From NCBI GenBank assembly GCA_033664045.1, contig GCA_033664045.1_3674.1: a stretch of DNA of 64,000 nucleotides; one strand, 5' to 3'. A program made the position numbers and the translations under genes. Within the stretch, counting starts at the first letter, position 1. Each line of letters begins with the position of its first letter. The notes beneath the pieces were generated by a model that had not been told where the DNA came from, did no database searches, and worked only from the letters and a program-made list of their open reading frames with translations. Of the stretch, positions 36,388 to 64,000 are shown piece after piece. This DNA comes from a phage.

Positions 36388-37056
36388 ATGGCTGTAGCTT
36401 ATCCTACAATACCAATTCCAGATCTTGAAGATGCAGAAACAGTCCTGAGTGATGACTTCTTGGTTGTCAACCAGACTGATGGGACAAGAAAGGCTAAGAT
36501 TGACGATGTTGTCAACGATCTTAGCATTACTAAGATAGTCTATTTCACAGAGGGTGGTTATCTTAAGAGCAAGAAGGACTTTGCTTATGACCCAGAAACT
36601 AAGCGCTACTACACGTGGAACGGGGATTATCCTAAAATAATCCTCCCAGACTCCACTGTAGAGGGTGCTGGAGGTGTGTCTGCAAATGCCTGGTCTGTTT
36701 TTGGTGAGCTTGCTGCAACTTCTTCTGGTAGAATAGTTGATTACGGATCTATCGGTGGTCAGCTTGATATGGATCTTGAAGTTGCGGATACCTTTAAGGT
36801 TCGACTAACTTCAAATACCACAATCTCTTTTGAAAATCAAACAGAAGGTCTTGAAGGGGTGGCGAGAACTATAACCGTATGCATTACTCAGACCTCTGGC
36901 GGCAACAAAGTCTATTGGCCTGGTAATGTTAAATGGTCCTACGGAAGAGATCCTATCCTAACATTTACAGCTGGTGCAACAGACATTTTCAAGTTGGAAA
37001 CCTACGACAACGGGTTAACTTGGTACGGAGCACTGATTATCGCAGGAGCTATCTAA
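36388..37056 (+). CDS. tail fibre/spike anchor-domain protein
   Basis: About 100 N-terminal residues align with the N-terminus of the 39691 fibre (DD.LVV.Q.D.TR.KI.DVV ... EGG.L...DFAY ... W.G..P). Confidence 0.5.
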   Translation: MAVAYPTIPIPDLEDAETVLSDDFLVVNQTDGTRKAKIDDVVNDLSITKIVYFTEGGYLKSKKDFAYDPETKRYYTWNGDYPKIILPDSTVEGAGGVSANAWSVFGELAATSSGRIVDYGSIGGQLDMDLEVADTFKVRLTSNTTISFENQTEGLEGVARTITVCITQTSGGNKVYWPGNVKWSYGRDPILTFTAGATDIFKLETYDNGLTWYGALIIAGAI

Positions 37057-37057
37057 G

Positions 37058-39655
37058 ATGCGTATTCAACACAACATTGATAACGTATTTCAGATGATTG
37101 AGGGGCACAGGAAGTGCCTCGATAACAACACAGGTATTACCAATACCCCTACACAAAATAAGCTAGTAAACCCTGATGGTCTTATAGCTGCAGGGTGGGC
37201 AGGTAATAAGATAAATAATGATTGGGCAATGCATGAGTCCCAAGCTGTGTTGATTCTGGGATACATTGAAGCATACAGGGCATCGAAAAGCGATTTCTAT
37301 CTGGATAGGGCAAAAGATGCTTGGGAAGCTTACAATAGTCATCTTCTGGGTGCATATGCAGTAGAAAGTAAAATGCAAAGATTGTCCCACTACCCACTAT
37401 CCACAGATGGGGTTCCATCACATGGTGGGTTTAAAGATGTAGTGGTGTCTTTTACCAACGGTAGAGGAAAAATCCCAGCTGGATCTCCGACATGGGGTGA
37501 ATACCTAGACAAGGCATTCCAAGCGTATAACGGTGTGCTAGGAAGAAACACTGTAGACTCTGATGTTTACGGCGGCACAGATGCTAACCCAAATTGGACA
37601 ACATCTGGATTAAGTTGGTGGGTTGAGTGGTATATAGCATGGGATGGTAACCGCTATTGGGCCAACGGTAGCATAGCAGACAGTGGTCATACGTCGGCAG
37701 AGTTCGGCACAATCCAACTGCAGGATAAGGGTGTTACAGGCAGCCATAAGGTAACCTACTGTGTGAGATTGCCACAAGAGCAGGGTGGTTCAGTGATACC
37801 TGCTGGATCCCCTGTAATTGTAAATCCTATAAATGTGGTTGCAGACAATCAAGCCCCAGAGTTGGGCGGGGAAGAAATGTGGTGTGACGCTTGTTATCAA
37901 CTCTACACCTTAACAGGTGAGGAAAAGTATTACACAGCGTTTAAGCAGTCTTACAACAAGCTGCTTAATTTCAGCGATATAAATGCCTACGACAAACTGT
38001 TTAGAAAGACCACGTTAATTAAGGCACCGTTCACAGATGGTACTTGTCTCGTCGCAGGAACAGTTCCTGTCATGAGCAGGGACAGTGACGGGTATATCAA
38101 TTTTAGAATGAACGCACGTCAGCCTTGCGAAATAATTCAAAAAGGGACTACATACAAGATAGGCAGAGATGCTGAAATTGTTATGAATTTCGGAGGAGAA
38201 GGGGTTCTGTTCCAGCCACACTTCATCCTTAATGATGGTAACAATAACAAAAAACAGTATAGGATAGGGGTCCCTTTTGGAGGGTCAGAGGTAACAGAGA
38301 CAGTTGCCAAGGTTACTGATTTCGTAGAGGTGGTTGGTAAAGACGGTAATCCGTATCTCTTGCCAAAAGAGGAAAACATTGCCGTAAGCGGTGGCGCTAG
38401 TGTTAGTATGCAGTATGATACCGACATTTATAACCACTCCGACAACTTCACCCGTTGCAACATAGCAAGAGGCAAGGTAACTTTCAATTTTGGAAGAGAG
38501 ATTTCTTTAAACTCAGTAACTTATCGCTCAGATGATGAGATGGTAAGGGCCAAATTCCTTGACAAAGACCGTTGGTTATGGTATGCTGATCTATATGCCA
38601 CTAACGGACAATGGGTAACAGAAACTCTTACCCTAGGTGATTTTAAACTAGACCCAACACAACCTCATCACACAGAAGATGAGATTAAACCTTTCTTTGC
38701 TAATCCTAAAGGAATTACCTCTGTAGATTTCAGTCTGAGCGACAGGCAGATAGGCAATGGCTTGTTCGATCTGTATTGCGTCAACACGCTGCCGCAATTT
38801 TATGTTGCAGATAGGGATGCTTATCTGATCTGGTTTAGTGTATGGATGGCAAGTAAGACAGAATCAACAGCCAAAGTTGGTGATTGCTATGTCAGAAACT
38901 ACAAGCAAGGTGCATACAGGTACACACCGGGTGTATTCCCTGCCGGAAAGGTGATAGATAAGGAAAACTATCTCTTAGAGGAAAAGCCAAATTGGCCCTA
39001 CCCTGGCATGCAATACCCAGCAGTCTACTGCATGGGTGCAGAAAACATAGATCGCCATAGGTTGTCAAATACAATAGGCTTTCTGTATGATGCTCAAGTC
39101 TGGTATAATAATACATTTAAGACAGAGGGTCCAGTTGCCTCACGTTATGTATGGCAGAGAGGTAATGAGGGGTTGACTGGTTGGTGGGAGATGGTAGATA
39201 ACTCTAAACTCCAATCAAGAGCCTTTGTTGCTGCGTGCCGCACACTGTACGAGCTTAAGAAACATAAAGAACCTGTTGACGAAAGACTGTTCCTGTTCTG
39301 CCAGAAATGGGCATGGTTCCTCAACAGATTCCAGTCATCTCATTCAGGAAATCTGCCTACAGACTTTAACACCTCTGGGGGATATTCTTATCAAGACAGA
39401 GGGGACAGGATGTGGGTGGTAGGTGAATGGCTTGCAGGTTGCTGCTGGCTAGGTCTGTGCGGGTATTCAGAGACAATACCTCAAATAGATATTGTTGTAG
39501 AAGCCTGCGTGAAGCTACTGCAAAAGCACCACTTCATCAATGGGGATAATGTTTTAAACGGCTGCTGGGCAGTTTCTGATCCGGTGGGCTATCACTCTGG
39601 CGAAATCCTTCGCGGTCTGGGCCTTTATGCTCAATACCGTGGATTGTACCTTTAA
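37058..39655 (+). CDS. large tail-associated protein, possible polysaccharide depolymerase
   Basis: 865 aa; segment WAMHESQAVLILGYIEAYRASKSDFYLDRAKDAWEAY is reminiscent of alpha/alpha-barrel glycoside hydrolases; enzymatic call is weak. Confidence 0.3.
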   Translation: MRIQHNIDNVFQMIEGHRKCLDNNTGITNTPTQNKLVNPDGLIAAGWAGNKINNDWAMHESQAVLILGYIEAYRASKSDFYLDRAKDAWEAYNSHLLGAYAVESKMQRLSHYPLSTDGVPSHGGFKDVVVSFTNGRGKIPAGSPTWGEYLDKAFQAYNGVLGRNTVDSDVYGGTDANPNWTTSGLSWWVEWYIAWDGNRYWANGSIADSGHTSAEFGTIQLQDKGVTGSHKVTYCVRLPQEQGGSVIPAGSPVIVNPINVVADNQAPELGGEEMWCDACYQLYTLTGEEKYYTAFKQSYNKLLNFSDINAYDKLFRKTTLIKAPFTDGTCLVAGTVPVMSRDSDGYINFRMNARQPCEIIQKGTTYKIGRDAEIVMNFGGEGVLFQPHFILNDGNNNKKQYRIGVPFGGSEVTETVAKVTDFVEVVGKDGNPYLLPKEENIAVSGGASVSMQYDTDIYNHSDNFTRCNIARGKVTFNFGREISLNSVTYRSDDEMVRAKFLDKDRWLWYADLYATNGQWVTETLTLGDFKLDPTQPHHTEDEIKPFFANPKGITSVDFSLSDRQIGNGLFDLYCVNTLPQFYVADRDAYLIWFSVWMASKTESTAKVGDCYVRNYKQGAYRYTPGVFPAGKVIDKENYLLEEKPNWPYPGMQYPAVYCMGAENIDRHRLSNTIGFLYDAQVWYNNTFKTEGPVASRYVWQRGNEGLTGWWEMVDNSKLQSRAFVAACRTLYELKKHKEPVDERLFLFCQKWAWFLNRFQSSHSGNLPTDFNTSGGYSYQDRGDRMWVVGEWLAGCCWLGLCGYSETIPQIDIVVEACVKLLQKHHFINGDNVLNGCWAVSDPVGYHSGEILRGLGLYAQYRGLYL

Positions 39656-39690: not shown

Positions 39691-42600
39691 ATGGCTGATA
39701 TTAAAGTTGTCAGAATTGAATCTCTTCCTGCCACTACCGCAGTGACAGAGGATGATTACCTGGTTGTTCAACAACCAGACCTGACCCGTCGTGTAAAAAT
39801 TGGCGATGTTGTCCATGTGGATGGGACTGTTTCTCATGTAATCTCCTTTAAGGAAGGTGGTAAGTTAAACGGCCCAATGGATTTTGCCTACTTCGAAGAG
39901 GAAGACCTCTACCTGCGTTGGAAAGGCGAATTTCCACACACTGTTCCTGCACTGTCTTCACCATACTCCGATGGCGGGATTACTGACGCTGCATGGATGG
40001 TATATACAGATCCGTCCTTAAGGGAGGAGCTGGAATCTACCATTGGCGCATCTATGATCATGACAGCCGAAGGGCAGTCTGTCCAGGATGTGATGGATGT
40101 TACTGTTCAGACAGCTAACGATGCTAAAGCGCTTGCACAGCGTGTAGATTTTGGTACAGTGCACACTGTAGGTGATGTTATCCACCTCGATAACTTTGTT
40201 GGCCCTGCAGTTATTGAAGAGGGAAGAACCACCAACTATCCTTCTGTAGCAGCTGGTGAAAAATTTCTGAACGGTGTGGTATCTCGTCGTGATACTACAA
40301 CTGTTGATGGTATTTTCCGTGGCGCTACCTCCGGAGCAATGTATACCATCGCAGTAACCAACGGTGTAGCGACAACAAAAAGAATAGCACTTCGTGATGA
40401 ATTTAAACGCCTGGAGGCAAACAACCCAACAAGAACAGTTATCCGTGCTGGAGATGATTTAAACACGGCAGGGTACTTGCAGCTTGATGCAACAGGTCGT
40501 TGGGGTATGTGGAACCAACAAACAGCTTCTTGGCAACCTCTTGCTATAGAGCAAGGCGGTACAGGGGCCAGAGATGCCGCTGGAGTCCGTATCAATATCG
40601 GGGCTTTCTATAAGCAACGTGCAGCCCTTGAGCCAAATTTCAATATCAATAATTTGACTGGTAATCAGGATGGTGTATACTACCAGCCGATGACTGCTTA
40701 TGCAACTGAGGCAAATGGTTACCCTGCAGGTTCTGGTGCTGGTCACTTGATTGTTTGGCAGAACAATGCTAACGGCGGTACAGGTTGTCGTCAGGAATAC
40801 TATCCATTCTCTAACGTAGATGTTTGGTATTTGAGAACCTATCAGGCCAACACAAATCAGTGGACTGCATGGCAGCCGATGGTCAGACCTCGTAACGATG
40901 ATACCTTCAGATCTCATATTGGCCTTGGTAAAAACAACTCGCCAGCCTTCGGGCACCTTTACCTAGCTCAATACTCGGGAGATGTTAAATCGGCCTCAGG
41001 TATTCTCCATGGAGATAAATATAATACTGACGGTGTCCTTGAGCATGGATATAGGATCTATTCTGAGGTAAGAAACGACAATAAGGCTTGGTTGACAATC
41101 CACCTGCACAAAGGCGCAAAAGGATCTGAAACTCATAGATATTTAGGCTTCCGTGAGGATGGGGTCTTAGATTGTCCTAAATATATGCAGGTTGGTGATC
41201 TGAACGGTCAGCTGGCAAACTGGGGACTTGGAGAATGGATCCGCAGTTCAGGAGCAGAAAGAGGTTTCTGGGGATCTAAGAAAGCCGCCAAGATGGTTGT
41301 CTGGGATGGTGGGATGGACGAATCCGGTAACGGCACTCTGGAATGGGGTGTTTATAACAACCGGAAGGCCAAGTGGGAACCTTTACCTCAAGCCGCAGGT
41401 GGTACTGGGGCTACAACTTTAGCAGATGCTCAGAATCTGTTCAAAGTCCCTATAGCAGCAGGTGTGAAAGACTTCTTAACACTGCCAAGAACCGCAGGGA
41501 TGGAAGATGGGAAATACTACCCAATCATCGTTAGAACAGATCCGTATTACGCCCCTTCGACAGGTACAGATATTACCATAGTTACCAGATCGTCATCTGG
41601 AAATGACCCTATGAACTGTGCGACCTTACAGTGTCACTATAGAACTGGTGGTTGGACAGACAGAGGAGACTCTTTCTACGGGGTAGTAAATTTCTACCAG
41701 AATGAAAAAGCACTTCTTGGGATGGTTGCTCCAACAAGGGGTAAACAAGAATATGTTGCTTTCTATGTGGAGGCTCGTGCCTTCCCTGTCAGCATATACG
41801 CAAGTAGAAATGTTATCGAAGTGTTTACCAGAGAGCAAGATTACCAGGTTGGCTCTGTAACAGACAATCAGGATGGGGTTAAGTTCGTTGCACCTCTTCA
41901 GTCAGCAGATTTGAATCTTGCTGTTCTAGGAGATAACAACACCAATACCAGACCTATTGTTGACTTCAAAGGTACTTCAGGGTTCTACACTGGCGGCGGC
42001 ACACAGTGGCACTATATAGGCACTGCTGAACGCTATGCTGTGATGAGCAAAATGAATATGCCAAAAGTCGAGCTATGGGCAGACGGTCTTGACTATTTGT
42101 GCTACGGCAGTCCTAGAAAGGCGTTATTCTCTAATGCAGGATTCCAGTGTGCATCAGATGGGACAGAGGATCTGACTAACGGTACGTTTACCTCTAAATG
42201 CGGTAATGGTGCTGGTCTCAAAGGTCAGGCAGAGTTCAGATCTACTCCGGAAGCGGGTCAAGTTATTGTTCGCGATGTTGTAGGCACAGCTCATAGATTC
42301 TACAACTTCAACAAGGATGGTACTTTCTCAGCTCCTGGCGGTTTTGTATGTCATACTGGTGCAGACTGGAACAACCAGTTTGGGCCTAACAACCCTTCTA
42401 AAATAATGGCAGGCAATGTCAACGGACCTGAAGGATCGATGGTTGTTGGTGGGTTGTCTGTGGCGTTTTCTGGAAACTATGCCTTCCAAATGGCTGGTCG
42501 CCTTGATCAGTTATATACCAGATCTATCGAGGGTGGTAACCATAGGGCATGGAACAAGGTTATACAGCACAGAGGACAGGGTCTTGGGACAAACGACCTT

Positions 42601-43491
42601 AACGACTACAAAGGAGATAGGGAGGGTTTTTATCATCAGGAGGCCAATGCTCAAGCCGCACTTGATAAAAACTACCCATGCTCCCAGGCAGGTACTCTCG
42701 TTGTCTACAGAAACTATGCCAACGTTCCAGAGAGTTGCGTACAGGAATATACAACATATCTTGGAGAAAAATTCCTGCGTTATGGAACAACGATAGGTGG
42801 TGTTTTCACATGGGGCCATTGGCAGCAGCTTGGTGGTAAGGGTATCACTCTAAAAACTCAAGGATCCAATCTTGAACCGGAGTTCACAATACACACGGGT
42901 GGTGGGACGGATGTTACCAACACTTCCAACATGCCTTCTAATACAGGCAGGTTGTACTATTGGGGCAATGGCGCAGATAGGAAGAATGTGCTGGAGTTTC
43001 AGATAAGTGATAACTCAACAGTCGCCAGTTGGGTATTCCACTGTGGCGCTAAGACAGATGAGGCTAAATCAAGATATTTTGCTGTCAACGGTACGGTAGA
43101 ATGTACTACTGTTAGCCAAAGTTCCGATAGGGACCTGAAGGATAACATAGAGGTCATACCTAACGCTCTGGAAGCAATTAGAAAAATGAAAGGCTATACC
43201 TACACCTTGAAAGAGAATGGTATGCCTTATGCAGGCGTGATTGCTCAAGAGGTTATGGAAGCATTGCCAGAGGCAGTAGGATCTTTCGTGAAAAGGAAGG
43301 AAATAGAAGGTCCTACTCAAGACGGTATTCCTCTGATGACCGAGGAAAGGTTCTATAACGTTGACTACGCAGCTGTAACAGGCTTGCTTGTCCAGGTTTG
43401 CAGGGAACAGGACGATAAAATAACCGCCCTTGAGGAGCAGGTTAAAAAATTGACAGAGGTTGTTACTGGATTGCAAGAGAAACTGAAGTAA
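39691..43491 (+). CDS. tail fibre/spike with C-terminal intramolecular chaperone (peptidase S74-like) domain
   Basis: C-terminus SDRDLKDNIEVIPNALEAIRKMKGYTYTLKENGMPYAGVIAQEVMEALPEAV matches the endosialidase-type autoproteolytic chaperone signature; N-terminal anchor shared with 36388 protein. Confidence 0.75.
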   Translation: MADIKVVRIESLPATTAVTEDDYLVVQQPDLTRRVKIGDVVHVDGTVSHVISFKEGGKLNGPMDFAYFEEEDLYLRWKGEFPHTVPALSSPYSDGGITDAAWMVYTDPSLREELESTIGASMIMTAEGQSVQDVMDVTVQTANDAKALAQRVDFGTVHTVGDVIHLDNFVGPAVIEEGRTTNYPSVAAGEKFLNGVVSRRDTTTVDGIFRGATSGAMYTIAVTNGVATTKRIALRDEFKRLEANNPTRTVIRAGDDLNTAGYLQLDATGRWGMWNQQTASWQPLAIEQGGTGARDAAGVRINIGAFYKQRAALEPNFNINNLTGNQDGVYYQPMTAYATEANGYPAGSGAGHLIVWQNNANGGTGCRQEYYPFSNVDVWYLRTYQANTNQWTAWQPMVRPRNDDTFRSHIGLGKNNSPAFGHLYLAQYSGDVKSASGILHGDKYNTDGVLEHGYRIYSEVRNDNKAWLTIHLHKGAKGSETHRYLGFREDGVLDCPKYMQVGDLNGQLANWGLGEWIRSSGAERGFWGSKKAAKMVVWDGGMDESGNGTLEWGVYNNRKAKWEPLPQAAGGTGATTLADAQNLFKVPIAAGVKDFLTLPRTAGMEDGKYYPIIVRTDPYYAPSTGTDITIVTRSSSGNDPMNCATLQCHYRTGGWTDRGDSFYGVVNFYQNEKALLGMVAPTRGKQEYVAFYVEARAFPVSIYASRNVIEVFTREQDYQVGSVTDNQDGVKFVAPLQSADLNLAVLGDNNTNTRPIVDFKGTSGFYTGGGTQWHYIGTAERYAVMSKMNMPKVELWADGLDYLCYGSPRKALFSNAGFQCASDGTEDLTNGTFTSKCGNGAGLKGQAEFRSTPEAGQVIVRDVVGTAHRFYNFNKDGTFSAPGGFVCHTGADWNNQFGPNNPSKIMAGNVNGPEGSMVVGGLSVAFSGNYAFQMAGRLDQLYTRSIEGGNHRAWNKVIQHRGQGLGTNDLNDYKGDREGFYHQEANAQAALDKNYPCSQAGTLVVYRNYANVPESCVQEYTTYLGEKFLRYGTTIGGVFTWGHWQQLGGKGITLKTQGSNLEPEFTIHTGGGTDVTNTSNMPSNTGRLYYWGNGADRKNVLEFQISDNSTVASWVFHCGAKTDEAKSRYFAVNGTVECTTVSQSSDRDLKDNIEVIPNALEAIRKMKGYTYTLKENGMPYAGVIAQEVMEALPEAVGSFVKRKEIEGPTQDGIPLMTEERFYNVDYAAVTGLLVQVCREQDDKITALEEQVKKLTEVVTGLQEKLK

Positions 43492-43496: not shown

Positions 43497-43525
43497 TTGC
43501 CCTCGCTTCGGCGGGGGCTTTTTGT
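43497..43525 (+). terminator. rho-independent terminator
   Basis: GCCCTCGC-ttcg-GCGGGGGC followed by TTTTTGTTT. Confidence 0.7.
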
Positions 43526-43530: not shown

Positions 43531-43559
43531 TTGCGTATTAACTCAAAATCTGGTAAAAT
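43531..43559 (+). promoter_or_regulatory. sigma70-like promoter with extended -10
   Basis: TTGCGT-17 nt-TAAAAT (TGGTAAAATAA). Confidence 0.5.
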
Positions 43560-43590
43560 AACTATCATGATTGTTTAACCAGGAGGCACA

Positions 43591-44181
43591 ATGTTTTTAT
43601 GGGAAAGGCCTAGATACCTTCCAGATATTAGATTGGAGCTGCTGGCAGATATTGTTACGTTTAAAAGTCCGTTTACAGGTAAAACGCAAAAAGTAACCTA
43701 TGCCACACCTAACTGGAAAGGCACTTTGACGGTTTCCAATATCAGCGAGTCACAGTTGCTAGAGCTTAAGAGCTTTGTTGATCAGGTGTATAGAGATGGA
43801 AACATCTTTCTTATTAAAACTTACGGTCACTCAGTTACAGCTAATGAGCCAATCGCCCTTGGGCCTACTGGTAACGACGATTTTTTGAAGACGGTTGGGT
43901 GGGAGCCAAACAGAGACATAGCCAGAGCTGGGGATAAAATATCTGTCAATGATGAATTGAAAGTGGTAACAGCTCCAGTGCGTAGCGATGGTGTTGGGTC
44001 TGCTGTTATAAGCATATCTCCAAGACTTAGAAAACCTATTGCCGCAGGGGACACTATGAAGATAATAACTCAATCCCCGAAGGGTAGGTTTCATATCAGA
44101 GATATTTATAAAATTAAGCAAAAAGTTGATGCTATGCAAAAAGGTGATAATATAGTTATCAACTTCTTTGAGGATTTCTAA
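43591..44181 (+). CDS. minor tail/distal tail protein, hypothetical
   Basis: 196-aa ORF after promoter, precedes large fibre-like protein. Confidence 0.4.
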   Translation: MFLWERPRYLPDIRLELLADIVTFKSPFTGKTQKVTYATPNWKGTLTVSNISESQLLELKSFVDQVYRDGNIFLIKTYGHSVTANEPIALGPTGNDDFLKTVGWEPNRDIARAGDKISVNDELKVVTAPVRSDGVGSAVISISPRLRKPIAAGDTMKIITQSPKGRFHIRDIYKIKQKVDAMQKGDNIVINFFEDF

Positions 44182-44182
44182 G

Positions 44183-44734
44183 ATGATCAGAGCGCCATTA
44201 GATAATTTATTTCTTGAAAAGCTGGAGCTTGATGGTGTTGAGATCTTAATTGCTGCAAAGCTGGAGCTACCGACAGGAACTGTCAGGGTGTGCTCAGGCA
44301 CTGGTGTTGTAGTAATTGAGGGGCAACATTTTATAGGGATAGGTGGATCAGCAACATTAACTGCTGTGTCTGAGAAAGATGCCACCAACTTCGGATCTGT
44401 GGTAGCGACATTGAACGGGTTTGATCCTAAGTATGTGGGTGATCTACTGAAGACGGAGTATTCTGGGTGTCGTGCCACGTTGTACATTACCGCTATGGAG
44501 AATGGTCTACCTGTTACAACCAATGGCTTGTTTGACGGCCTTATAACAGATATGGCTATTCAGACGGGTGAGAATAGTGCTTTGTCCATATCCATCTCTT
44601 CCATCTTCAACAGTTGGTTAAGAGGTTTTCCTTATCGGTACACAGAGGAAAGCCATAGCTCAAGAAACGATAATGACAGATTTTTTAAATATGTGGATCA
44701 GGTGGCGAGTCGCCCGATCATTTGGGAGGTTTAA
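44183..44734 (+). CDS. minor tail protein, hypothetical
   Basis: Start set at ATG 44183 (listed ORF 44168). Confidence 0.4.
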   Translation: MIRAPLDNLFLEKLELDGVEILIAAKLELPTGTVRVCSGTGVVVIEGQHFIGIGGSATLTAVSEKDATNFGSVVATLNGFDPKYVGDLLKTEYSGCRATLYITAMENGLPVTTNGLFDGLITDMAIQTGENSALSISISSIFNSWLRGFPYRYTEESHSSRNDNDRFFKYVDQVASRPIIWEV

Positions 44735-45159
44735 TGAGCACACACCCTCGTTTAGTGGATTGGCAAGAAAGATTGTGGAAAGTATTTGACGAAGAGGCCA
44801 CCATACCTTTTGAATGGGGATTCCACGATTGTTGCACCTTTGCAGCTAAGTGTGTTGATGCCCAATACGGAACAGATTTTCTTTCTAACTTCGAAGGAAC
44901 GTATAAAACAGAGTTGGAAAGCAAAAGATGGTGCATGCTTCGTTTCAAAACTACACACCTGCCTACTATTTTTGATCTCTTTTTGACTCGACTGGATACT
45001 CCTAAACAGGTTCAGCGTGGCGATATTGTTATTTTCGAAGGTCTGAACGGCCTCACCGCTGGTGTGTTCTGGAACAACCAGATTTGGGCGAAAGGTAATA
45101 AAGGGATCTTTACGTTCGATATGAAAGATTCTATCGTTGTTGATGTCTGGAGGTATTAA
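44734..45159 (+). CDS. NlpC/P60-like (tail assembly K-like) protein, putative
   Basis: FEWGFHDCCTFAAKCVD cysteine motif; start at ATG 44734 after GGAGG. Confidence 0.35.
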   Translation: MSTHPRLVDWQERLWKVFDEEATIPFEWGFHDCCTFAAKCVDAQYGTDFLSNFEGTYKTELESKRWCMLRFKTTHLPTIFDLFLTRLDTPKQVQRGDIVIFEGLNGLTAGVFWNNQIWAKGNKGIFTFDMKDSIVVDVWRY

Positions 45160-55431: not shown

Positions 55432-56475
55432 ATGACTAAACCAGTTATCCCTCTTGATATTTGGGCCAATCAGGATGTTGTGCTTGAAAATACGGGAGAA
55501 TTGAATAAGTCCCAACCAAAAAAAGAAGAGAGATTGAAAGGTTGGGATATGACACAAAGAGTGGCATGTGAAGTTGTTAACTTTGAACTTCACATGCTTT
55601 CTGCGTGGTTAAAGCATTTAACAGAAGATGTTGTCCCAGGATGGGATAATAGATTCTTAAGGGTCACTAATAATCTGGCAGACGTTCCAGACAAAGCTGC
55701 TGCACGTCAAGTTCTCAATGTATACTCGCCTGAAGAAATGGATGACCTTTATGTTGACAAGGCTGGAGACACAATGATCCAGACTCAAACTTTAGGTCTT
55801 CAAAGAATCGAGTTTGCATCCGCGTCAACAGACAATGCGGCGATATACACCACCATAACTCCAGACAAGACGACAATGGATTTCTGGATTATGGACAACA
55901 TCGGTGGTGCTGACGGCACAGATCTTGATGATCCTTCTCACCAAATAGACGGGTTCCGTTGGAGATTTCAACCTTCTGGTGGGCAGCCTGTGTTTTCGGC
56001 TATGAAGCTCAATGCTATAACTGCCAACCGTGCAAGACTGGCTATCCAAGGGAATCTTGAATGCAACGATGCAAAAAGTTCCTCTGCAAATGCCAATTCG
56101 GTCACGATACCAAGAGCCGCTGTTAACGGACAACAATCCTGCGGAAGCGCTCAAATAGGTGGAAGAGTAGATTGTAACGATAAAACCGCCAGAGGTCAAT
56201 ATGCAACAGTTGGTGGAAGAAACGTGGTCCGCAGGGTAAATGGTAGTAGCGCAGACAGTAGTGGTAACCTTACTATTCCTATGCCTAGTAGGGGTGTTGA
56301 AGATGTAAGGATAGCAAACCGTTTCAGAACCACCTACAGAGAATCAAGAGTATACCCTGGGCATGTAATGTGCTCCGGCAATTACGCCTATAAACACCCG
56401 TATCAGGGCGACTATTGGACTGGAGCTATTCAAAAATTTGTAAACGGTCAATGGATCACCATATCTTATGCTTAA
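55432..56475 (+). CDS. tail fibre protein (paralog B)
   Basis: GDTMIQTQTLGLQRIEF motif and conserved C-terminus IQKFVNGQWITISYA; colinear with 53377 but diverged centrally. Confidence 0.7.
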   Translation: MTKPVIPLDIWANQDVVLENTGELNKSQPKKEERLKGWDMTQRVACEVVNFELHMLSAWLKHLTEDVVPGWDNRFLRVTNNLADVPDKAAARQVLNVYSPEEMDDLYVDKAGDTMIQTQTLGLQRIEFASASTDNAAIYTTITPDKTTMDFWIMDNIGGADGTDLDDPSHQIDGFRWRFQPSGGQPVFSAMKLNAITANRARLAIQGNLECNDAKSSSANANSVTIPRAAVNGQQSCGSAQIGGRVDCNDKTARGQYATVGGRNVVRRVNGSSADSSGNLTIPMPSRGVEDVRIANRFRTTYRESRVYPGHVMCSGNYAYKHPYQGDYWTGAIQKFVNGQWITISYA

Positions 56476-56484: not shown

Positions 56485-56751
56485 ATGAAATTAACTCAGT
56501 TTTTATGGGGACTGGTTGCAGCATCTGATGACCCTACAAAAGTGTCCCAATCTAAGCTATGGTCAAACATAGGCATGGCAGTGATGACTGGGGTTTTTAT
56601 TCATATGGGGTACAATGATACGCTTCCTGAATGGTATGCGTGGATATACGCACCTTCAGTAGCCTGCCCCCAGCTTATTAGCAAATTCATCTCGCTCCGG
56701 TGGGGTTGCCAGCACCCTGACCACGTTAAAAACGAAGAGCAAAAAGCTTAA
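56485..56751 (+). CDS. small two-TM protein, candidate holin
   Basis: Two hydrophobic segments (LTQFLWGLVAAS; NIGMAVMTGVFIHMG) and charged C-terminus KNEEQKA. Confidence 0.3.
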   Translation: MKLTQFLWGLVAASDDPTKVSQSKLWSNIGMAVMTGVFIHMGYNDTLPEWYAWIYAPSVACPQLISKFISLRWGCQHPDHVKNEEQKA

Positions 56752-56760: not shown

Positions 56761-58506
56761 ATGGCGCAAGACATGACAAGCTTCGAGCAGGCGGTAGATC
56801 AAGTAATTGTTGATTCTGAACGTTTGCACTTGATTGTCAACGGTAACGCTGTGGATGAAGTTGTCGTAGAGGATGGGACCACCATCCCTACGGTACGAAA
56901 AGCCATGCTTGACACCCTTTATTTTAAAACGCCACCAATCCCTTGGGCGTATGGTGCATCCACAACAGTTTTTAACCAGTTGTATGAGTTTAAAGGGGAT
57001 ACAGGCCCTCAGTGGTGGTACGCCCCAGCAGCATCAAAATCTAACCCGGTTAGGATGCCAGCAGATCCTTCACAATCTCCGAACTGGAGATTATATACCG
57101 ATTCTGCAGTAATGGCAAAATACTACGCAAAACTTAACAGCCCAAGATTCGAAGGTGACCCGCGAGTACCTACACCTCCAATGGACGATAAGTCCGAGTC
57201 TATAGCAAACACAGAGTTTGTTGTGGACTATGTGGATAGCATATTTAAAGCCATGGAGGGGATGAAAGTTACTGTAGGGTCTTTGGTGGTAAAAGGTCTT
57301 ACAGAACTTGCTAACACCATAGTTGGTGGCACCCTTACCTTACACGGGCCTGTTAATGGAGCGGATTCTACTGCACGCTTCAGGAACCTAATCCTTACTG
57401 CAAATACTTCTACACTGACTTTTGCGTGGAGCGATCCTAAGCATGCAGACTGGAGAAGCACAGAGCTGCAACCTCATGAAGTAGCCACCCACAGAGTTAT
57501 AGCTGACACTATAACTTCTGGGAAACCAGTGGCTAATAACAACGATGTGCATTTTGATGGTCTAGGTAATAACTTTTTTGACTACGTGTACATTCGTGGT
57601 AATGCCATGAAGGCAGCAACCGAACCGACATTGCAGGTTGATGGGACCACCAGGGTTAAGAACCTTGAGGTGACAGGTACCGTTACAGGGATAACCTACT
57701 CTGTAGATGGCACCATGATCTACCCTAGCTATATTGAAAGCACGGGAGATGCACTGATCAATGGAGATTTAGAGGTTGGCGGATCTATAGTCATTCGTGG
57801 CACAGCATCCGTCCAGAACATATCTTTAAATACTCTGCGGGTGAATGAGCGTGCCACTTTTGAAGGAGAAGGGCTTACAGCCAACAAAGGTGCAATTACC
57901 GAGCTGACAACCACTACTCTAACTGCAACAACTGCAAACTCTGAAAACTGCAACGTTACCCGAAACTTGCAGGTAAATGGAGATGTTAGTTTAAACGCAG
58001 CAGGGACGGGCACCACCTACCTTCACAACCTTGAAATATCCGGCACAGTGACTGGGTGGCTGCCAGACTTCTCTAATGTCAACTTTGTTTGTAATGGCAT
58101 TAACTCCAGCGGTAAGATAACCACCTCTCAAGAAATTGAGGCGGGTAAAACCATTACTGCCCCTACTTTCCACGCAGGAAAGGTAGATTTTGATTTAGAG
58201 GAGGTTGACGCGTCCAGTGGGACATGGACACCTAACGGGCAGGCCAGTATGTATGTTGTCCACGCTAAAGGGGATTTTACAATAGGTCAGTGGCCTGGGA
58301 CATCAGCGGAAGATAAACCTTATCCATTCACTGCAGTTATCTATGTCATTCAGGATGCTGTAGGTCACAACGTGACTTTGCACGATAAGTATGCTATCCT
58401 GTCGGCAACACCTGTTATTAACAACAAGGCTAACAGTGTTACCTTGCTGCAATTAACGTATTGTGGTGTTGGTGATATCGTAGACGTAGTAATTGCACAA
58501 CGTTAA
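56761..58506 (+). CDS. tail fibre/spike protein
   Basis: 581 aa, threonine/glycine/asparagine-rich beta-type repeats typical of fibre shafts. Confidence 0.5.
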   Translation: MAQDMTSFEQAVDQVIVDSERLHLIVNGNAVDEVVVEDGTTIPTVRKAMLDTLYFKTPPIPWAYGASTTVFNQLYEFKGDTGPQWWYAPAASKSNPVRMPADPSQSPNWRLYTDSAVMAKYYAKLNSPRFEGDPRVPTPPMDDKSESIANTEFVVDYVDSIFKAMEGMKVTVGSLVVKGLTELANTIVGGTLTLHGPVNGADSTARFRNLILTANTSTLTFAWSDPKHADWRSTELQPHEVATHRVIADTITSGKPVANNNDVHFDGLGNNFFDYVYIRGNAMKAATEPTLQVDGTTRVKNLEVTGTVTGITYSVDGTMIYPSYIESTGDALINGDLEVGGSIVIRGTASVQNISLNTLRVNERATFEGEGLTANKGAITELTTTTLTATTANSENCNVTRNLQVNGDVSLNAAGTGTTYLHNLEISGTVTGWLPDFSNVNFVCNGINSSGKITTSQEIEAGKTITAPTFHAGKVDFDLEEVDASSGTWTPNGQASMYVVHAKGDFTIGQWPGTSAEDKPYPFTAVIYVIQDAVGHNVTLHDKYAILSATPVINNKANSVTLLQLTYCGVGDIVDVVIAQR

Positions 58507-58554: not shown

Positions 58555-61500
58555 ATGCTTCCAATCCCTTTGCTAAAACTTGGTCGTCATTTCCTCGATA
58601 AGAGGGGTGGAATTAAGGAACTTGCTGTTCTGTCATACCCAATAGACAACAGTGATGGCACAAGCACTACAGTACCCTATGTAAATAGCTTAGCTATACT
58701 TTTTGATGATGGTCAACTTAATATCACGGGCTATAACAGGTTCGGAGAGTGCCGCACTGGGGATCTTGACACGATAAACTACCCCAACGAGGCTGCCTGG
58801 AACGTTGATCATGTGTGGAGAGCAGACCGCGCGTTTGTGATCCGAACTTTTGATAACCAGTTTTTCTACATCGGCTGCACTGCAGGGCTTATCGGGTCTG
58901 ATGCTGCAGGCGGTAATGATGTTTGTGTAAGAGAGTGGACACCTCTCCCTGAACAGATTGTTAAAGGGTTGCACCTTGACACACACCCAGAGCGCCTTGT
59001 TGAGGTGATGGGTGGTATTAACAACACTATTTGGGTTATTGCAGAGGCAGAAGGCACTGGCATACTGAATCTGTATGGATCTGGTAACAACACCTACGGA
59101 TCTTTGCATGTAGATAAAAACCAGCATGCAACTCCTGTAAAGATTGGTGAAACATCGGAAAATCCTGAAACAGGTCCTTGGAAAAACCCAAGCATCAACT
59201 GCGAGGTGCATGACAACTCTGTTATTTTCGGCGGTCCTAGAGGTTTCTGGATTGCTGGATACGACTTTCTGAGAAACAACAGTAGAAACGACCTTGTTTG
59301 GCCTCCTGTGCAGATTACTCGTAACGATTTGAGAGGCATTCCTGCAGATGAGGAGTGGAAAGGGTTTATGTGTGGTCCTAACGGGGCAATAATTGCCACA
59401 CAGAGGATGCACAAACCCAATGACCAGCAGCTTGTTAACGTATTCTACGGGCAAGACGTCTGGGGAGATGACACATGGCGTTCCTTAAATATCACCTACA
59501 CTCATGAGGTGATAATGGCTCGTGGATACGGCACAAGTGGCATTTTCTTCAATAATGGCACTAAGCAGTATCGTGGATTCTCTCGCAACTTGTGTAATGA
59601 TATTGGTGCACAATCTGCAAACAATAGCCCTAGGGCTAATTTTATTCACTATCAGGCTCTGGCTACGGCTAAATACGTCGAGCAACGTCTGCCAGTTAGC
59701 TGGACAGAGAGTGTTTATTTCCAAGGCATCCACAGAGAAGGTTTCTTAGGGACCTTTACTGTTGTTAATGGCAAACTTTGGTGGTCAGGCATCCCAAGGG
59801 GGAGTTTTGCAGGCTCTAACAACCTGTTTGGCGGCAGACTTAATAGTCAGGGGTTCACAGAGGTTCCTGAGAATTGGTATAAAAATGTCCCGGTAGACAG
59901 TTGGGGTGTTGATGATATTTTCGACGTTAACGGTGTTAGCAGCGTTAGCAATATTTACATTGGTGACACGGTCAAGATGAAATTGAAGCCTCAGCCAGAG
60001 GGAGCTACGTTCATTATTGACAAGATTGAACTGGTAAATGCTGCAGGTACGGTTGTTACAGATGCAAATTACCAATTCTCCACCAACTGGAACCACGGCG
60101 GGGCCAACGAGGTTGTTGTTACCCAGTATAACAGAAATGTTAACAGACGTGGCCTGTACTCTGTAAAAATAACCTATCATGACAAGCATGGCACAGGCAG
60201 AACCCATACGACAAGAACTTTGAACTGGAACACCATAGTTCCTGCGTATCCGTCCAACGGCAAGTGGCATACTGTCGGTAGAAACAAACAGTTCCATGTC
60301 AACGATACTGTATACTTCGGGCTTAACGCAGCTCAACCTGTTGTAGAAGGCGATACATCGTATATGGTACGACTCCATAGAATGGATGCCGGGTCTGTAA
60401 CCTACGATGTGACTCAAGAGATCTACGATCAGAGACGTACTACGTATGACAATGTTGTGAAAACACAAGCCTTGTGGGAGTTCAACCCTAACGGCAGAGG
60501 CGGTAAAATGTTGCAGGTCAACGAGCAAAACGGAACATCGTTGACTGTCCATGAGCATCCAGATCCTTGGCCTGATCCTGGAAAACCTAACTCTGGTGCT
60601 CGTACACTGAAAATTGTCAGCCATGATGCAGGATATTTCGGAATACGCTGGGAAGCTACAGTAAGATATGCCGACGGGACAACAAACAACATAGGGATTA
60701 CACTTGGCGGCACTAGTGAAGATAACTCACTGAAAATTGCCTACACCCCTAGAGGCATCTCTATTGACAATATGGATGTTGTTCGCAACGGTTACGGCGA
60801 TGTGAATGTCAAAGTTACTCTTGGCGAACATCTTGGTGGGGAAAGGATCATCATGTATGCCTTTGATCATGACCCTCGCACCAACGGAACCTATGCAGAC
60901 CAGGCGTGGAGTTACCTGATAAGCGCACCTGAGCCAAATACTAAAGAATTCTACTACGGTATGAAGCGAGATGTGTGCAAGAAAACAGGGACACATGACT
61001 GGATTGCGATCTGTGTTAAAGATGAACGCACCGCTTGGAACGAGCCTGTTAACAGATGGTTCATAGGTATTCCCACCCGAAGTGATAAATACGTTGAAGA
61101 ATATATTGTGTGCATGGGCGGCACCAACCTTAATATGTGTTGGAACGAGGATGCAAACAACAAATACTCTGATTATGACTATATGCGGGACTATTCTTGC
61201 AATCAGTGGTTTAACCAACCTGGATATGCTGATCGACAGGCAAGAGTGAATCCTGCAATCTTCACAGATACTCAGGTTTTCTTGACAAAACAGGCTAACG
61301 AGGTTCAGACCTTCAAGAACAAATATGACCCTAACAAGTGGTTTTATAACTGTTATGGCGCATTTTTCTGGGGCCCAGGGGAACTACCTGGTGGTGGGTC
61401 TTGCTTCGAGGCTGCAACTTACGCCAGTGACAGATTCATGGGGCAGGTCAAGAAGTACAAGATAATTCCAGGGCCTGAAACTTTGGGTAATGCTGTTGAT

Positions 61501-64000
61501 CCTTACATCATCATGACCGTACTAAGATCGAACATGGACGGAACATCCATATCTATGCAGGTTCCGATAACAAACGGCTACAAGCGTGTTGTGATGATCA
61601 TTAAGTGCGACTTAATAGGTAAGCAAGTTCTTGCAGAAAACGGAACCTCAACACATTTATTTGAGACTGCTCTGCACTATCAGTTTGCTGATTCACCTTT
61701 TGCAGGGGATAAGAGAATATCAGATACAGACACTGCGCGGTGCAAAAAATTTATGCTTGGCGGCGGATGGTGGTGGTATGAATTTGATTTAACAGACAAA
61801 TTCACCGACACATCTAAAGTGGTGACAGGACTTCGTCTAGACCTGGGTGAGAACATGCATAAAAGTGTTTGTGATGGCACCTACGGTGATCCTACGGTAT
61901 ACTTGAAGTATGTCTCTTTTGAGCACCCTGAAGATGTTGTTTATGGTCCAAAACTGAGGCTGTTTGGCAATTGGATTGCTAAAGACAGAGAAGGGATGGG
62001 TAGGAAGGTAAGAGGCTTCTTGGTCGATGCTGGCACAGAGGATATGCTGGTGAATGCGGTGTGGCCTGAATTACCGGGAACTCAGTGGGACAATTCTGCT
62101 AAGTCTATAAACTGGTTCAATATCCACAGAGCTATGTGGGCAACTAACTGCTATCTGTGGAAAGAGTTGAATGACGGCGCTTTCGGGTTTACTGGTGGCA
62201 GAAGAATGGCAATCATTTGCTGGACAACGCTGCAGAGATGTTATGACCATGACTATGAGATTGGAGGCAGGGCATGGAAAAATATAAGGGATAGAATCAT
62301 AACTAACTTTGCAGATCCTAACGGTGGCGGGGCGTATGGTTTCGACTGCAGCAGGCTTATCCATTTGAACGGATCTTCGGCCTATAAGAAAGAAGGCTAC
62401 TCTGGGTCCATGATTGAATGGGGCTTGGTAAAAGATTCTCGTGTGTTGATGGGTCAGCAACTTGCTGCTGCAATAGGACCGAACGCAGTACAATCTGTTA
62501 AACCAGCATGGTTCGATATCCCATTATGGTCCTCTGGAACACCAGGAACTGCTGCAATCAACCCTACCACTGGGGATCTGGAAATCTCCTGGGAGGACCT
62601 GAAGCAGGTCGGTGGCTGGGATAAGACAGGGTACCAGGTGCAATGGTGGAGATCTGACGGATCGTTAGCGGCTGATGAGTTTGTTAGGGACAATTTCTAC
62701 ACTATGTCCTCTGCAAAAGCACAGCAATTATTTGGTCAGGCAACTCCGTCAACGATCACCATGTCTATGTGCTGTAAAGACAACAGGACTGGAGCTTTGG
62801 GACCAAGGGTTGCTAAGGTTTTCTCAGGTATTAAATGGAATCTTCCTGTTCAAAGTGTTGCATGGAAGCAAATAGGTGATAACAAGCTGCTGGTTACCCC
62901 TGCTTGTCAGTTCAACGCAACTCTTAACGTTGATCCTGCTGTTGCGGCAAACTCAGCTAAAGCTTCTGACTTCTCTGTGTCTAACGCTGCTATGGCAGAT
63001 GTGAGGAAGATTGACACACTGAACGCCAGAATTACCTGTAAAAACACTTATGGTACATTCCAGATCATCAACAACTTCACAGATACTGATTCTAAGGTAG
63101 TGAGGACAGCAAGCCAGACTCTGAGTTTAGGAACTCTGGCATACTCTGCCCTAATCACTGAACAGTCCTCTACCCTTCAGGGTGGGGGTGTTGGTAAGTT
63201 GATCACAACCCCTGTGTGGAAGCCAAATGAGTGGGTTGTATTCGATTTGACTGTGGACTTCTCCAGTGATAATAACTGGACATGGGTAAGGAATTGCTTG
63301 TCACAGTTGATGGGCGGTCCAAGCTCCATTAGCGATAGTCACGACTCTACTGACCCGAGCGTGTTCCAGGTGGGTAAAACTCACCCAGAGACTGGAGAAA
63401 CGTTGCCTGACAGGAAGTATGCTTTGGTTTGCATCTCCAACGGCAAGGCAGATGTCACATTCTCAGGCACACACGCTTATAACGGTACATATAACTTCTC
63501 AAGGAAGTATAGTCTCAAAGCAGGTAACATTATAGACGAGGTTGGTGTGCTGTATAATCCGGGCAACGGCATAGGGATTGTGGGCGGTAAACTGCAGATG
63601 CAGGAACCTTCTATCACCCCTTCCAACGTATCCGGGATTAGAAAGACTTGGGAAAGTAGTAATACCAACATTGCAACAGTGGATGCCACCACAGGGCTGG
63701 TAACATTTAAAGCTACTGGGAATGTCACCATAAAGTTTGTAGTTACAGATGATGCAGGCCGCAAAACGTCTTCAACATCGTTTACTGTCAGGCAGATGGC
63801 ACCTCAGTGGTTTATTTGGGAAGGAAATCCTCTTGACGGGGCTTATCCTAGACCTGCAGGAACGTCCAATATGAGGGTCTTTACCGGTCCGGTCATGAAC
63901 AATCCGACCACAACCACCAACCCTACATTTTTTGGTGCTTACATACCTGAAATTATTGGCCTACCAAGGAACCAGATACAACTGCTTTTCGGAGCAGGTG
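58555..64000 (+). CDS. giant virion-surface protein (>1800 aa, partial) with Ig-like (Big_2-type) domain
   Basis: ATG 58555 after GGAGA; hand translation found no in-frame stop to the window end; near 63.6 kb reads ISGIRKTWESSNTNIATVDATTGLVTFKATGNVTIKFVVTDDAGRKTSSTSF, an Ig-like pattern. Confidence 0.6.
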   Translation, partial: MLPIPLLKLGRHFLDKRGGIKELAVLSYPIDNSDGTSTTVPYVNSLAILFDDGQLNITGYNRFGECRTGDLDTINYPNEAAWNVDHVWRADRAFVIRTFDNQFFYIGCTAGLIGSDAAGGNDVCVREWTPLPEQIVKGLHLDTHPERLVEVMGGINNTIWVIAEAEGTGILNLYGSGNNTYGSLHVDKNQHATPVKIGETSENPETGPWKNPSINCEVHDNSVIFGGPRGFWIAGYDFLRNNSRNDLVWPPVQITRNDLRGIPADEEWKGFMCGPNGAIIATQRMHKPNDQQLVNVFYGQDVWGDDTWRSLNITYTHEVIMARGYGTSGIFFNNGTKQYRGFSRNLCNDIGAQSANNSPRANFIHYQALATAKYVEQRLPVSWTESVYFQGIHREGFLGTFTVVNGKLWWSGIPRGSFAGSNNLFGGRLNSQGFTEVPENWYKNVPVDSWGVDDIFDVNGVSSVSNIYIGDTVKMKLKPQPEGATFIIDKIELVNAAGTVVTDANYQFSTNWNHGGANEVVVTQYNRNVNRRGLYSVKITYHDKHGTGRTHTTRTLNWNTIVPAYPSNGKWHTVGRNKQFHVNDTVYFGLNAAQPVVEGDTSYMVRLHRMDAGSVTYDVTQEIYDQRRTTYDNVVKTQALWEFNPNGRGGKMLQVNEQNGTSLTVHEHPDPWPDPGKPNSGARTLKIVSHDAGYFGIRWEATVRYADGTTNNIGITLGGTSEDNSLKIAYTPRGISIDNMDVVRNGYGDVNVKVTLGEHLGGERIIMYAFDHDPRTNGTYADQAWSYLISAPEPNTKEFYYGMKRDVCKKTGTHDWIAICVKDERTAWNEPVNRWFIGIPTRSDKYVEEYIVCMGGTNLNMCWNEDANNKYSDYDYMRDYSCNQWFNQPGYADRQARVNPAIFTDTQVFLTKQANEVQTFKNKYDPNKWFYNCYGAFFWGPGELPGGGSCFEAATYASDRFMGQVKKYKIIPGPETLGNAVDPYIIMTVLRSNMDGTSISMQVPITNGYKRVVMIIKCDLIGKQVLAENGTSTHLFETALHYQFADSPFAGDKRISDTDTARCKKFMLGGGWWWYEFDLTDKFTDTSKVVTGLRLDLGENMHKSVCDGTYGDPTVYLKYVSFEHPEDVVYGPKLRLFGNWIAKDREGMGRKVRGFLVDAGTEDMLVNAVWPELPGTQWDNSAKSINWFNIHRAMWATNCYLWKELNDGAFGFTGGRRMAIICWTTLQRCYDHDYEIGGRAWKNIRDRIITNFADPNGGGAYGFDCSRLIHLNGSSAYKKEGYSGSMIEWGLVKDSRVLMGQQLAAAIGPNAVQSVKPAWFDIPLWSSGTPGTAAINPTTGDLEISWEDLKQVGGWDKTGYQVQWWRSDGSLAADEFVRDNFYTMSSAKAQQLFGQATPSTITMSMCCKDNRTGALGPRVAKVFSGIKWNLPVQSVAWKQIGDNKLLVTPACQFNATLNVDPAVAANSAKASDFSVSNAAMADVRKIDTLNARITCKNTYGTFQIINNFTDTDSKVVRTASQTLSLGTLAYSALITEQSSTLQGGGVGKLITTPVWKPNEWVVFDLTVDFSSDNNWTWVRNCLSQLMGGPSSISDSHDSTDPSVFQVGKTHPETGETLPDRKYALVCISNGKADVTFSGTHAYNGTYNFSRKYSLKAGNIIDEVGVLYNPGNGIGIVGGKLQMQEPSITPSNVSGIRKTWESSNTNIATVDATTGLVTFKATGNVTIKFVVTDDAGRKTSSTSFTVRQMAPQWFIWEGNPLDGAYPRPAGTSNMRVFTGPVMNNPTTTTNPTFFGAYIPEIIGLPRNQIQLLFGAG

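Follow-up and report, generated by a model that had tools for sequence, protein, structure and literature searches.

The baseplate and tail fibre locus of a Vequintavirus: shared anchor domains, exchangeable fibre segments and a tail-tip cassette of siphovirus type

Phages related to the Escherichia coli myovirus rV5 and to phi92 have been described as carrying several host-recognition proteins on one baseplate, a multivalent view set out for phi92 in 2012 (cited here through later papers), for rV5 in 2013, in the BASEL study of 2021, in the RBPseg and phiTE studies of 2025 and in a phi92 structure of 2026. The BASEL paper cites the comparison with a "nanosized Swiss army knife", notes an N4-like deacetylase fibre and reports that the three largest fibre genes vary by allele, the rest of the locus being conserved (PMC8594841). 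Here, we describe the corresponding locus in a 64,000-nucleotide stretch of phage DNA (GenBank assembly GCA_033664045.1, contig GCA_033664045.1_3674.1; "the window" hereafter means this whole stretch). Its positions 36388-64000 encode a set of fibre, baseplate and fibre-associated proteins, among which a four-gene cassette at 43591-48998 is of the type that builds siphovirus tail tips.

For rV5, virion proteomics detected gp30, 32, 33, 37, 41, 42 and 43, and the same paper describes an endosialidase-type C-terminal domain in gp41 and a P22-tailspike-like N-terminus in gp43, and suggests different lipopolysaccharide (LPS) chemotypes for the two short-fibre paralogs (PMC3606486). A "comparative proteomics" paper on O177 phages is in silico only. 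Cryo-electron microscopy (cryo-EM) of Bas49 and Bas54 located three of the nine annotated fibres, namely the short, gp28-type and gp41-type ones (RBPseg 2025). In the phiTE structure, the short fibre binds wedge protein 1, and the long fibre, whose proximal region comprises an N-terminal bundle of helices together with a globular domain and a beta-helix of short length, binds wedge 2A and the sheath initiator through that bundle, which is completed by a sheath-initiator helix (PMC11972413). In the phi92 structure of 2026, gp147 is the short fibre, the gp143 endosialidase is tentatively placed at the tip of an L-shaped fibre, and a third fibre is without assignment. [quoted passage not shown]

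A Vequintavirus locus with several receptor-binding devices

Judged by its sequence and gene order, the window is a Vequintavirus, that is, an rV5-like E. coli myovirus. A DNA search with the 22-kb core of the locus (36388-58506) against phage records matched 128 of them, and in 109 the match extends over 80% or more of the core, at 90-99% identity. Closest to it are Escherichia phages phiWec191 (96.8%), WalterGehring/Bas51 (96.4%), slur16, FV3 and rV5. With the genes numbered after rV5, from gp43 (36388) down to gp27 (58555), both content and order are identical to the window in rV5, phiWec191, WalterGehring/Bas51 and FV3, with DNA 94-97% identical over 22 kb (96-97% for phiWec191, WalterGehring and rV5), and near-identical sequence and gene order extend from the sheath-initiator gene to gp27. 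The wider succession of sheath, tube, tape measure, tube initiator, hub, spike and fibre locus is also that of the annotated WalterGehring and rV5 genomes. Compared gene by gene (tblastn), the proteins are mostly 97-100% identical to those of rV5 and WalterGehring. The exceptions with respect to rV5 are allelic only: the homologs of gp41 (88%, divergent at residues ~900-1150), gp27 (93%) and gp30 (96%).

We consider it very likely that this locus comprises the late-expressed operons for the baseplate and fibres of a Vequintavirus, whose baseplate carries several receptor-binding devices at once. The first-pass annotation, made from the sequence alone, had named fibre or spike-like genes within 28 kb at 36388, 37058, 39691, 45159, 53377/55432, 56761 and 58555, and each of these open reading frames (ORFs) is present, all on the + strand, as are the other genes described below from 36388 onwards. 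The list needs amending in that the product of 37058 is modelled with a globular enzyme-type fold and that of 45159 is of tail-tip type, neither being a plain fibre, and in that the gene at 51292 had been overlooked; the count of fibre-type or fibre-associated genes in the locus is nine. The accompanying suggestion that the adsorption apparatus is multivalent and its specificity modules exchangeable agrees with the published view and with the allele and cross-genus comparisons given here. It is correct, but had already been published for rV5-like and phi92-like phages.

The comparison with phi92 delimits what is common and what differs. phi92 has a homologous baseplate core and homologs of its gp140, gp141, gp142 and gp144-149 are found in the locus, the fibres being conserved at their N-termini and swapped in their distal enzymes. 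In phi92, an endosialidase and a colanidase stand where the window has the 1266- and 581-residue fibres, and there is one short fibre instead of two. phi92 also lacks the tail-tip cassette (Dit, hub-like, DUF6950 and J proteins) and the protein of 1875 residues found at the end of the locus in Vequintavirus.

A shared N-terminal anchor and the exchangeable segments

The proteins encoded at 36388-37056 (222 residues, 100% identical to rV5 gp43) and at 39691-43491 (1266 residues, rV5 gp41 homolog) share an N-terminal domain and then diverge completely, as had been proposed from the sequence. Residues 8-105 of the former align with residues 7-105 of the latter (BLASTP, 38% identity over 99 residues, E=3e-18), with no similarity past about residue 105. 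This anchor (residues 1-105) contains the Pfam family PF18668 Tail_spike_N, at residues 51-105 in the 222-residue protein, which scores 41.0 bits for 36388 and 40.9 bits for 39691 against a gathering score of 25, and in a six-frame scan of the window a hidden Markov model (HMM) of the anchor domain matches these two proteins only. Beyond the anchor, the 222-residue protein has a small C-terminal domain of about 110 residues (109-222) that shares 42% identity with the C-terminal part of phi92 gp140, and the 1266-residue protein has a conserved shaft, a variable tip (~950-1150) and an S74 domain. In the PDB, sequence matches of the Tail_spike_N region are the N-terminal regions of CBA120 tailspikes. 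The same domain opens the receptor-binding proteins of the branched tailspikes of CBA120 and G7C gp66 type; here, in contrast, its carriers belong to an rV5-type myovirus, and one of them is only 222 residues long.

Between the two anchor genes lies 37058-39655, encoding an 865-residue homolog of rV5 gp42. Its earlier listing among fibres and spikes was not borne out, as the protein is predicted to form a globular, glycoside-hydrolase-like (alpha/alpha)6 barrel, with the toroid typical of that fold and a beta-sandwich insert at residues ~330-613 in the model. A PDB sequence search with 37058 gave no match, and because the word-indexed single-protein homolog search returned six matches only, the model is shallow and of low confidence.

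The same succession of genes recurs in other genera. In Salmonella phage PVP-SE1 (Seunavirus), the N-termini of gp050, the homolog of the 222-residue protein, and of gp048, a 712-residue colanic-acid-degrading spike (colanidase), are 49% identical over 103 residues, and the gp42 homolog is placed between the two, as in the window. In phi92, the anchor HMM splits in two, its first ~45 residues being found in gp140 and in the endosialidase gp143 and its Tail_spike_N part in gp151; gp141, 35% identical to the gp42 homolog over the full length, directly follows gp140. By these alignments, the arrangement of a small anchor protein, a gp42-like protein and a large anchor-bearing receptor-binding protein is kept in three genera, and the large protein differs by genus: an S74 fibre in the window, a colanidase in PVP-SE1 and an endosialidase in phi92. 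In the phi92-like phage PATM, the gene following the gp141 homolog was considered as an anchor fibre and rejected; BLASTP found no N-terminus in common with the gp140-like protein, and the gene is a homolog of gp34/gp142.

Since the arrangement is kept in three genera while the large protein differs, we infer that the anchor is a docking module to which gp42 or the wedge offers two equivalent sites. The gp43 and gp41 homologs would dock through their homologous N-terminal domain of about 105 residues on a common partner, most likely the neighbouring (alpha/alpha)6 protein of 37058, which we propose as a scaffold for the two anchor-bearing proteins, or else on equivalent wedge sites, and the distal modules could be exchanged without touching the docking interface. 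The shared N-terminus could also be a mere local duplication with no common docking role, for which the 2.6 kb that separate 36388 from 39691 offer an easy origin. This appears improbable, given that CBA120 and G7C-type tailspikes carry members of the same Pfam family at their N-termini, and that the pairing of a small with a large protein recurs in PVP-SE1 and phi92 (in the latter with the first sub-module only). Because this pairing is kept while everything downstream of the anchor differs, a conserved interface fits.

The distal part of the 1266-residue fibre carries the S74-type intramolecular chaperone that the first-pass annotation had recognized (PF13884 at residues 1145-1196, 55.4 bits for a cut-off of 22), with a Ser/Lys motif, SSDRDLK, at about residues 1144-1150, the start of the domain. 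The spacing of the Ser/Lys dyad of the S74 domain is presumably as in the K1F endosialidase. By analogy, the chaperone would be cleaved off after folding. On Bas49 and Bas54, the gp41-type fibre stands at the baseplate and no density is seen for the peptidase domain (RBPseg 2025).

Allele profiles were computed as sliding identity against rV5, DrSchubert, CarlMeissner and WalterGehring. The gp41 alleles are 94-100% identical up to residue ~950; those of rV5 and DrSchubert then fall to 42-60% at ~950-1150 and recover in the S74 region. The protein of CarlMeissner (3604-8375 in the CarlMeissner sequence), of 1479 residues, has a wholly different C-terminal part of ~300 residues and is followed by an extra 110-residue ORF without counterpart in the window, possibly a separate chaperone or an adhesin that replaces the S74 arrangement. 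The J-like alleles of the cassette are ~100% identical at residues 1-650 and 950-1279 and 8-64% at ~650-950, a segment (window positions 47100-48000) that is 80 residues shorter in DrSchubert and CarlMeissner. Within the genus, these profiles confine the exchangeable modules to delimited stretches, namely the tip of gp41 (~950-1150) and the middle of the J-like protein (~650-950). Four helical repeats of the form TN(K/Q)xT(T/V)DL(L/I)N were found by eye in the variable segment of J. Note that in the RefSeq record of Escherichia phage V18 the gp41, Dit and J-like genes are split into several shorter ORFs; these breaks are either sequence errors or real pseudogenes, in exactly the variable fibre genes.

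A tail-tip cassette of siphovirus type

The least-understood part of the locus, at 43591-48998, is a complete siphovirus tail-tip cassette in a contractile-tailed phage. The module opens with a Dit-fold protein of 196 residues (43591-44181, rV5 gp40 homolog), which is followed by a hub-like tail-tip protein of 183 residues counted from its ATG (44183-44734, gp39 homolog; phrog_2048 "tail protein", E=9e-68), by a DUF6950 protein of 141 residues in the gpK/peptidase position (44734-45159, gp38 homolog; Pfam PF22262, 116.5 bits) and by a J-type tail-tip or central-fibre protein of 1279 residues (45159-48998, gp37 homolog). The latter combines a hub-like N-terminal half, immunoglobulin-like (Ig-like) domains, helical repeats and a Phage_Tail_Tip domain, with Pfam matches to Ig_J, PF24489 Ig_J_second (106 bits) and PF09327 Phage_Tail_Tip (132 bits). 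In the PDB it matches lambda gpJ chains (E=1.7e-28) and, with its C-terminal part, also F2-pyocin central fibre chains (E=4e-16).

PDB profile searches with the family alignments of the Dit, hub-like and DUF6950 proteins gave chance-level matches only, and Pfam scans of Dit and hub-like family members found no significant family; the word-indexed homolog search with 43591 returned near-identical sequences only. The homolog of the hub-like protein in Pseudomonas phage MR15 is annotated DUF2163, and PF09931 is touched by only one family member (E=0.089). Some records label the DUF6950 protein "cell wall hydrolase" or "CHAP domain". Six aligned homologs share an invariant DCC motif but no invariant His, so a peptidase activity is doubtful. 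Automated annotations of the cassette genes include "distal tail protein" and "central tail fiber J".

The relatives of the cassette lie in siphoviruses. The N-terminal 500 residues of J match 437 phage records (tblastn), Vequintavirus at 95% or above and all others below 60%; among the records inspected, the matches below 60% are siphoviruses or siphovirus-sized genomes, and the best of those outside Vequintavirus are the Queuovirinae Skure, SLUR75 and KurtStettler (54-57%). In KurtStettler (Seuratvirus), a siphovirus (BASEL, PMC8594841), genes of 194, 194, 144 and 987 codons come after the tape measure gene, and their products are, in the same order, 32, 40, 45 and 53% identical to those of 43591, 44168/44183, 44722/44734 and 45159. 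For J, the 53% refers to residues 48-721, and the helical repeat region that follows (residues ~722-908) has no counterpart in the BLAST alignment to the KurtStettler protein. The same four-gene layout after the tape measure is found in PY54 and MR15 and, interrupted by insertions, in Vibrio phage K394 and Acinetobacter phage IME_AB3, and the lambda gpM-gpL-gpK-gpJ tip is a more distant counterpart. Unlike these siphovirus modules, the cassette of the window does not follow the tape measure gene (30245-32584) but is located past the hub, the spike and three genes of the fibre locus, between a fibre gene and the wedge genes. The 2006 GenBank record of rV5 already gave ORF37-40 as similar to PY54 genes, and RBPseg places a Vequintavirinae fibre in its class TC5, with an N-terminal region "common in central tail fibers"; no explicit discussion of the cassette as such in Vequintavirus was found in the searchable literature.

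Comparison of the loci shows that the cassette is absent from PVP-SE1, in which the wedge gene adjoins that of the anchor-bearing spike, and from phi92, in which endosialidase and wedge are separated by the small gp144 gene alone. Where present, it is well kept. The J N-terminal half occurs at 95% or above in 117 phage records, the same number as have the Vequintavirus wedge gene at that level, and between genomes whose DNA is 96% identical the cassette proteins show 97-100% identity, which indicates that the cassette is under constraint. The J of the window also departs from its siphovirus homologs at the N-terminus. In five siphovirus J proteins this is a Gly/Ala-rich hydrophobic segment, with a maximal 19-residue hydropathy of 1.73-2.17 and 0-3 charged residues among the first 42, whereas in the window it is polar (maximum 0.31, 8 charged residues among the first 42).

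We tentatively suggest, with a confidence that falls a little short of even, that a whole siphovirus tail tip was captured from a Queuovirinae/PY54-like lineage and re-purposed as an off-axis host-recognition appendage, with J losing its hydrophobic N-terminus and gaining variable helical repeats. The cassette, once acquired from the siphovirus lineage, would form an extra, non-axial appendage and not a DNA conduit. It could instead belong to the central axis of the baseplate, as a distal extension of the hub and spike that acts in penetration: the four genes come after the tape measure in all the siphovirus homologs, where they build the axial tip, and the N-terminal half of J is hub-like, with an HHpred match to the Mu gp44-type hub 3CDD in the rV5 paper (PMC3606486). 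An axial position is nevertheless unlikely. A full myovirus axis is already present in the window, with a tube initiator, a hub (33968-34972) and an iron-spike-type protein (34972-35649), and there is no second tape measure gene. In phi92 and phiTE, the axis is filled by the tube initiator, hub, spike and C-terminus of the tape measure, with no J-like protein, and both PVP-SE1 and phi92 do without the cassette altogether. The hydrophobic N-terminal segment, found in five of five siphovirus homologs, is moreover missing from the J of the window.

The cassette, and perhaps the giant protein of 58555 too, might also be a decaying or non-virion relic of transfer, the working arsenal then being smaller than the gene count. 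In rV5, the proteomic evidence for gp37 and gp27 is weak, and no cryo-EM density has been assigned to either. A relic of this kind seems very improbable to us, as all four cassette ORFs are intact, with the protein conservation and the match to the wedge-gene record count given above, and as the cassette has a late-promoter motif of its own. That allelic replacement is limited to a single segment of J likewise speaks for selection on function. Capture and re-purposing as an off-axis appendage is the reading we prefer.

Other fibres, transcription units and host recognition

Downstream of the cassette, the two wedge genes encode subunit 1 (49104-50594, homolog of rV5 gp36 and phi92 gp145; Pfam Baseplate_J, phrog_6), which is the docking platform of fibres according to the phi92 and phiTE structures, and subunit 2 (50606-51292, homolog of rV5 gp35; phrog_4056, 29% identical to phi92 gp146). 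The next gene, 51292-53364, encodes a 690-residue homolog of rV5 gp34 and phi92 gp142 (42% identical to the latter) with a Calx-beta domain and an N4-type, deacetylase-like TIM barrel. It matches PF23845 TIM-barrel_NCTSP (268 bits), PF23844 NCTSP_N (48 bits) and, in the PDB, N4 Gp64 (E=5e-24). It therefore has both domains in common with the Gp64/Gp65-type glycan-binding sheath protein of phage N4, as well as the GMSHY motif, here at residue 337, which a 2026 receptor-prediction preprint reports as perfectly conserved in all phages using the N4 glycan receptor. Unlike the N4 proteins, it has a Calx-beta domain fused at its N-terminus and would sit on the baseplate of a myovirus. By analogy with relatives, in which genetic evidence ties this protein family to the N4 glycan receptor, it is the probable binder of that receptor.

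The short tail fibres are encoded at 53377-54417 (rV5 gp33, 346 residues, phrog_4465) and 55432-56475 (rV5 gp30, 347 residues), their assignment being based on the PHROG family match and on the adjacent Caudo_TAP gene. The latter, at 54432-55016 (rV5 gp32, 194 residues), begins 15 nucleotides past the stop codon of the first fibre gene and confirms the Tfa-type chaperone that had been read there (PF02413 Caudo_TAP, 45.8 bits for a cut-off of 22.1). In relatives, these fibres are Mu-like, homologs of Mu gpS/gpU with a chaperone (BASEL, PMC8594841), and fall in RBPseg class TC1. The two are paralogs, as had been noted, with 43% identity over the full length (E=5e-96), close to the 42.3% reported for the same pair in rV5 (PMC3606486). 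The "conserved ends, divergent middles" ascribed to them is rejected on the profile of identity per bin of 30 residues (50, 37, 27, 43, 70, 47, 53, 23, 30, 53, 30 and 58%), in which the best-conserved block is central; that description fits the J-like alleles instead. The product of 53377 is the closer copy to the single short fibre of PVP-SE1 (46% identical).

Two small ORFs flank the second short-fibre gene and are kept at the same positions in PVP-SE1. The first (55028-55342, rV5 gp31, 104 residues) has a hydrophobic N-terminus (hydropathy above 1.6 at residues 3-25) followed by a coiled-coil-like part; phi92 gp149 holds its position, and a sequence match to gp149 was not found. The second (56485-56751, rV5 gp29, 88 residues; phrog_1322 "membrane protein") is 35-53% identical to its homologs in PVP-SE1 and phi92 (gp144).

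The long tail fibre (56761-58506, rV5 gp28, 581 residues) is homologous to that of the Pectobacterium phage phiTE (Certrevirus) in its baseplate-proximal part, residues 8-339 aligning with residues 15-359 of PDB 9cuy chain g (E=1.7e-76). The distal part differs, the phiTE fibre having 793 residues. Compared with phi92 the protein is a mosaic, in which the first ~110 residues share 44% identity with the start of the colanidase gp150 and the last ~100 share 47-48% with the end of gp151. The last gene, rV5 gp27 (58555-64000), is open at the window end, with no stop codon before it, and encodes at least 1815 residues of a giant fibre-associated protein that has 1875-1878 residues in relatives (1875 in WalterGehring). 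Its one recognizable domain is an Ig-like Big_2 at about residues 1682-1733, for which the PDB gave a marginal intimin-type Ig-domain match only, and its first 184 residues are 30% identical to the N-terminus of PVP-SE1 gp039. BLAST and a repeat finder detected no internal protein or DNA repeats in this or the other large fibres.

The motif TGGTAAAATA, which matches the late-gene motif TggTAaAAtA of rV5 (PMC3606486), has four exact copies in the window (25883-25892, 29405-29414, 43551-43560 and 49062-49071), each of them on the + strand and a short distance upstream of the gene that comes next. Those at 43551 and 49062 lie 30-40 nucleotides past GC-rich hairpin terminators of similar sequence (CGCTTCGGCGGGG), at 43499-43518 and 49005-49026, respectively, so that the cassette is bracketed on both sides by a terminator followed by an exact motif. 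A third hairpin (55352-55373) precedes a copy with one mismatch (55393-55402) ahead of 55432. Because of these placements, the fibre locus is split into at least four late transcription units.

Two further observations concern the records and the window at large. Eighteen records labelled "Campylobacter phage" (host Campylobacter jejuni; MG065646, MG065647, MG065658 and others) are 93-96% identical to the locus; the stated host seems unreliable, or else contaminating E. coli served to propagate the isolates. ARAGORN makes seven calls in a tRNA cluster at 14914-15726, of which 15383-15481 (99 nucleotides, with a four-base "anticodon" atcc) and the tRNA-Ser at 15194-15284 score below the Rfam tRNA gathering threshold and could represent a pseudo-tRNA, a tRNA with an intron or one with a long variable arm.

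By analogy with the relatives, infection would begin with binding to a conserved enterobacterial glycan, for which the gp34-type protein of 51292 is the candidate binder, and terminal recognition of the outer-core glucose of LPS would fall to the Mu-like short fibres of 53377 and 55432, folded with the Tfa chaperone of 54432. The two short-fibre paralogs would recognize different LPS chemotypes. The short fibres would dock on wedge 1 and the long fibre of 56761 on wedge 2 and the sheath initiator, and the gp41 tip, the J middle, gp27 and the enzyme-fold gp42 would widen the host range across capsule and O-antigen types. Several points weigh against this picture. The proposed binding of the anchors to gp42 is drawn from gene neighbourhood, and the gp42 model has a low predicted local distance difference test score (pLDDT 62.7). 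The gp43, gp42, gp34, gp27 and J-like proteins are without structural placement on any Vequintavirus virion; the mass spectrometry of rV5 is weak for two of them, with four peptides and 4.2% coverage for gp37 and 3.1% coverage by non-tryptic peptides for gp27; and the receptor assignments come from relatives.

Overall, the finding is real and well documented in a well-sampled phage genus, and is already known. Host recognition by many fibres is relevant to phage therapy and host-range engineering, has been recognized since 2012-2013 and is under active structural study. What is added here is a gene-by-gene map of the anchor and the exchangeable segment of each fibre, together with comparative evidence, from three genera, that one docking module is reused by the 222-residue protein and by unrelated distal enzymes. 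The cassette is the component that would repay structural work. Were it an off-axis appendage, some of the approximately six annotated fibres that cryo-EM has yet to locate would be accounted for, and complete tail-tip assemblies would be transplantable between phage morphotypes with a change of role.

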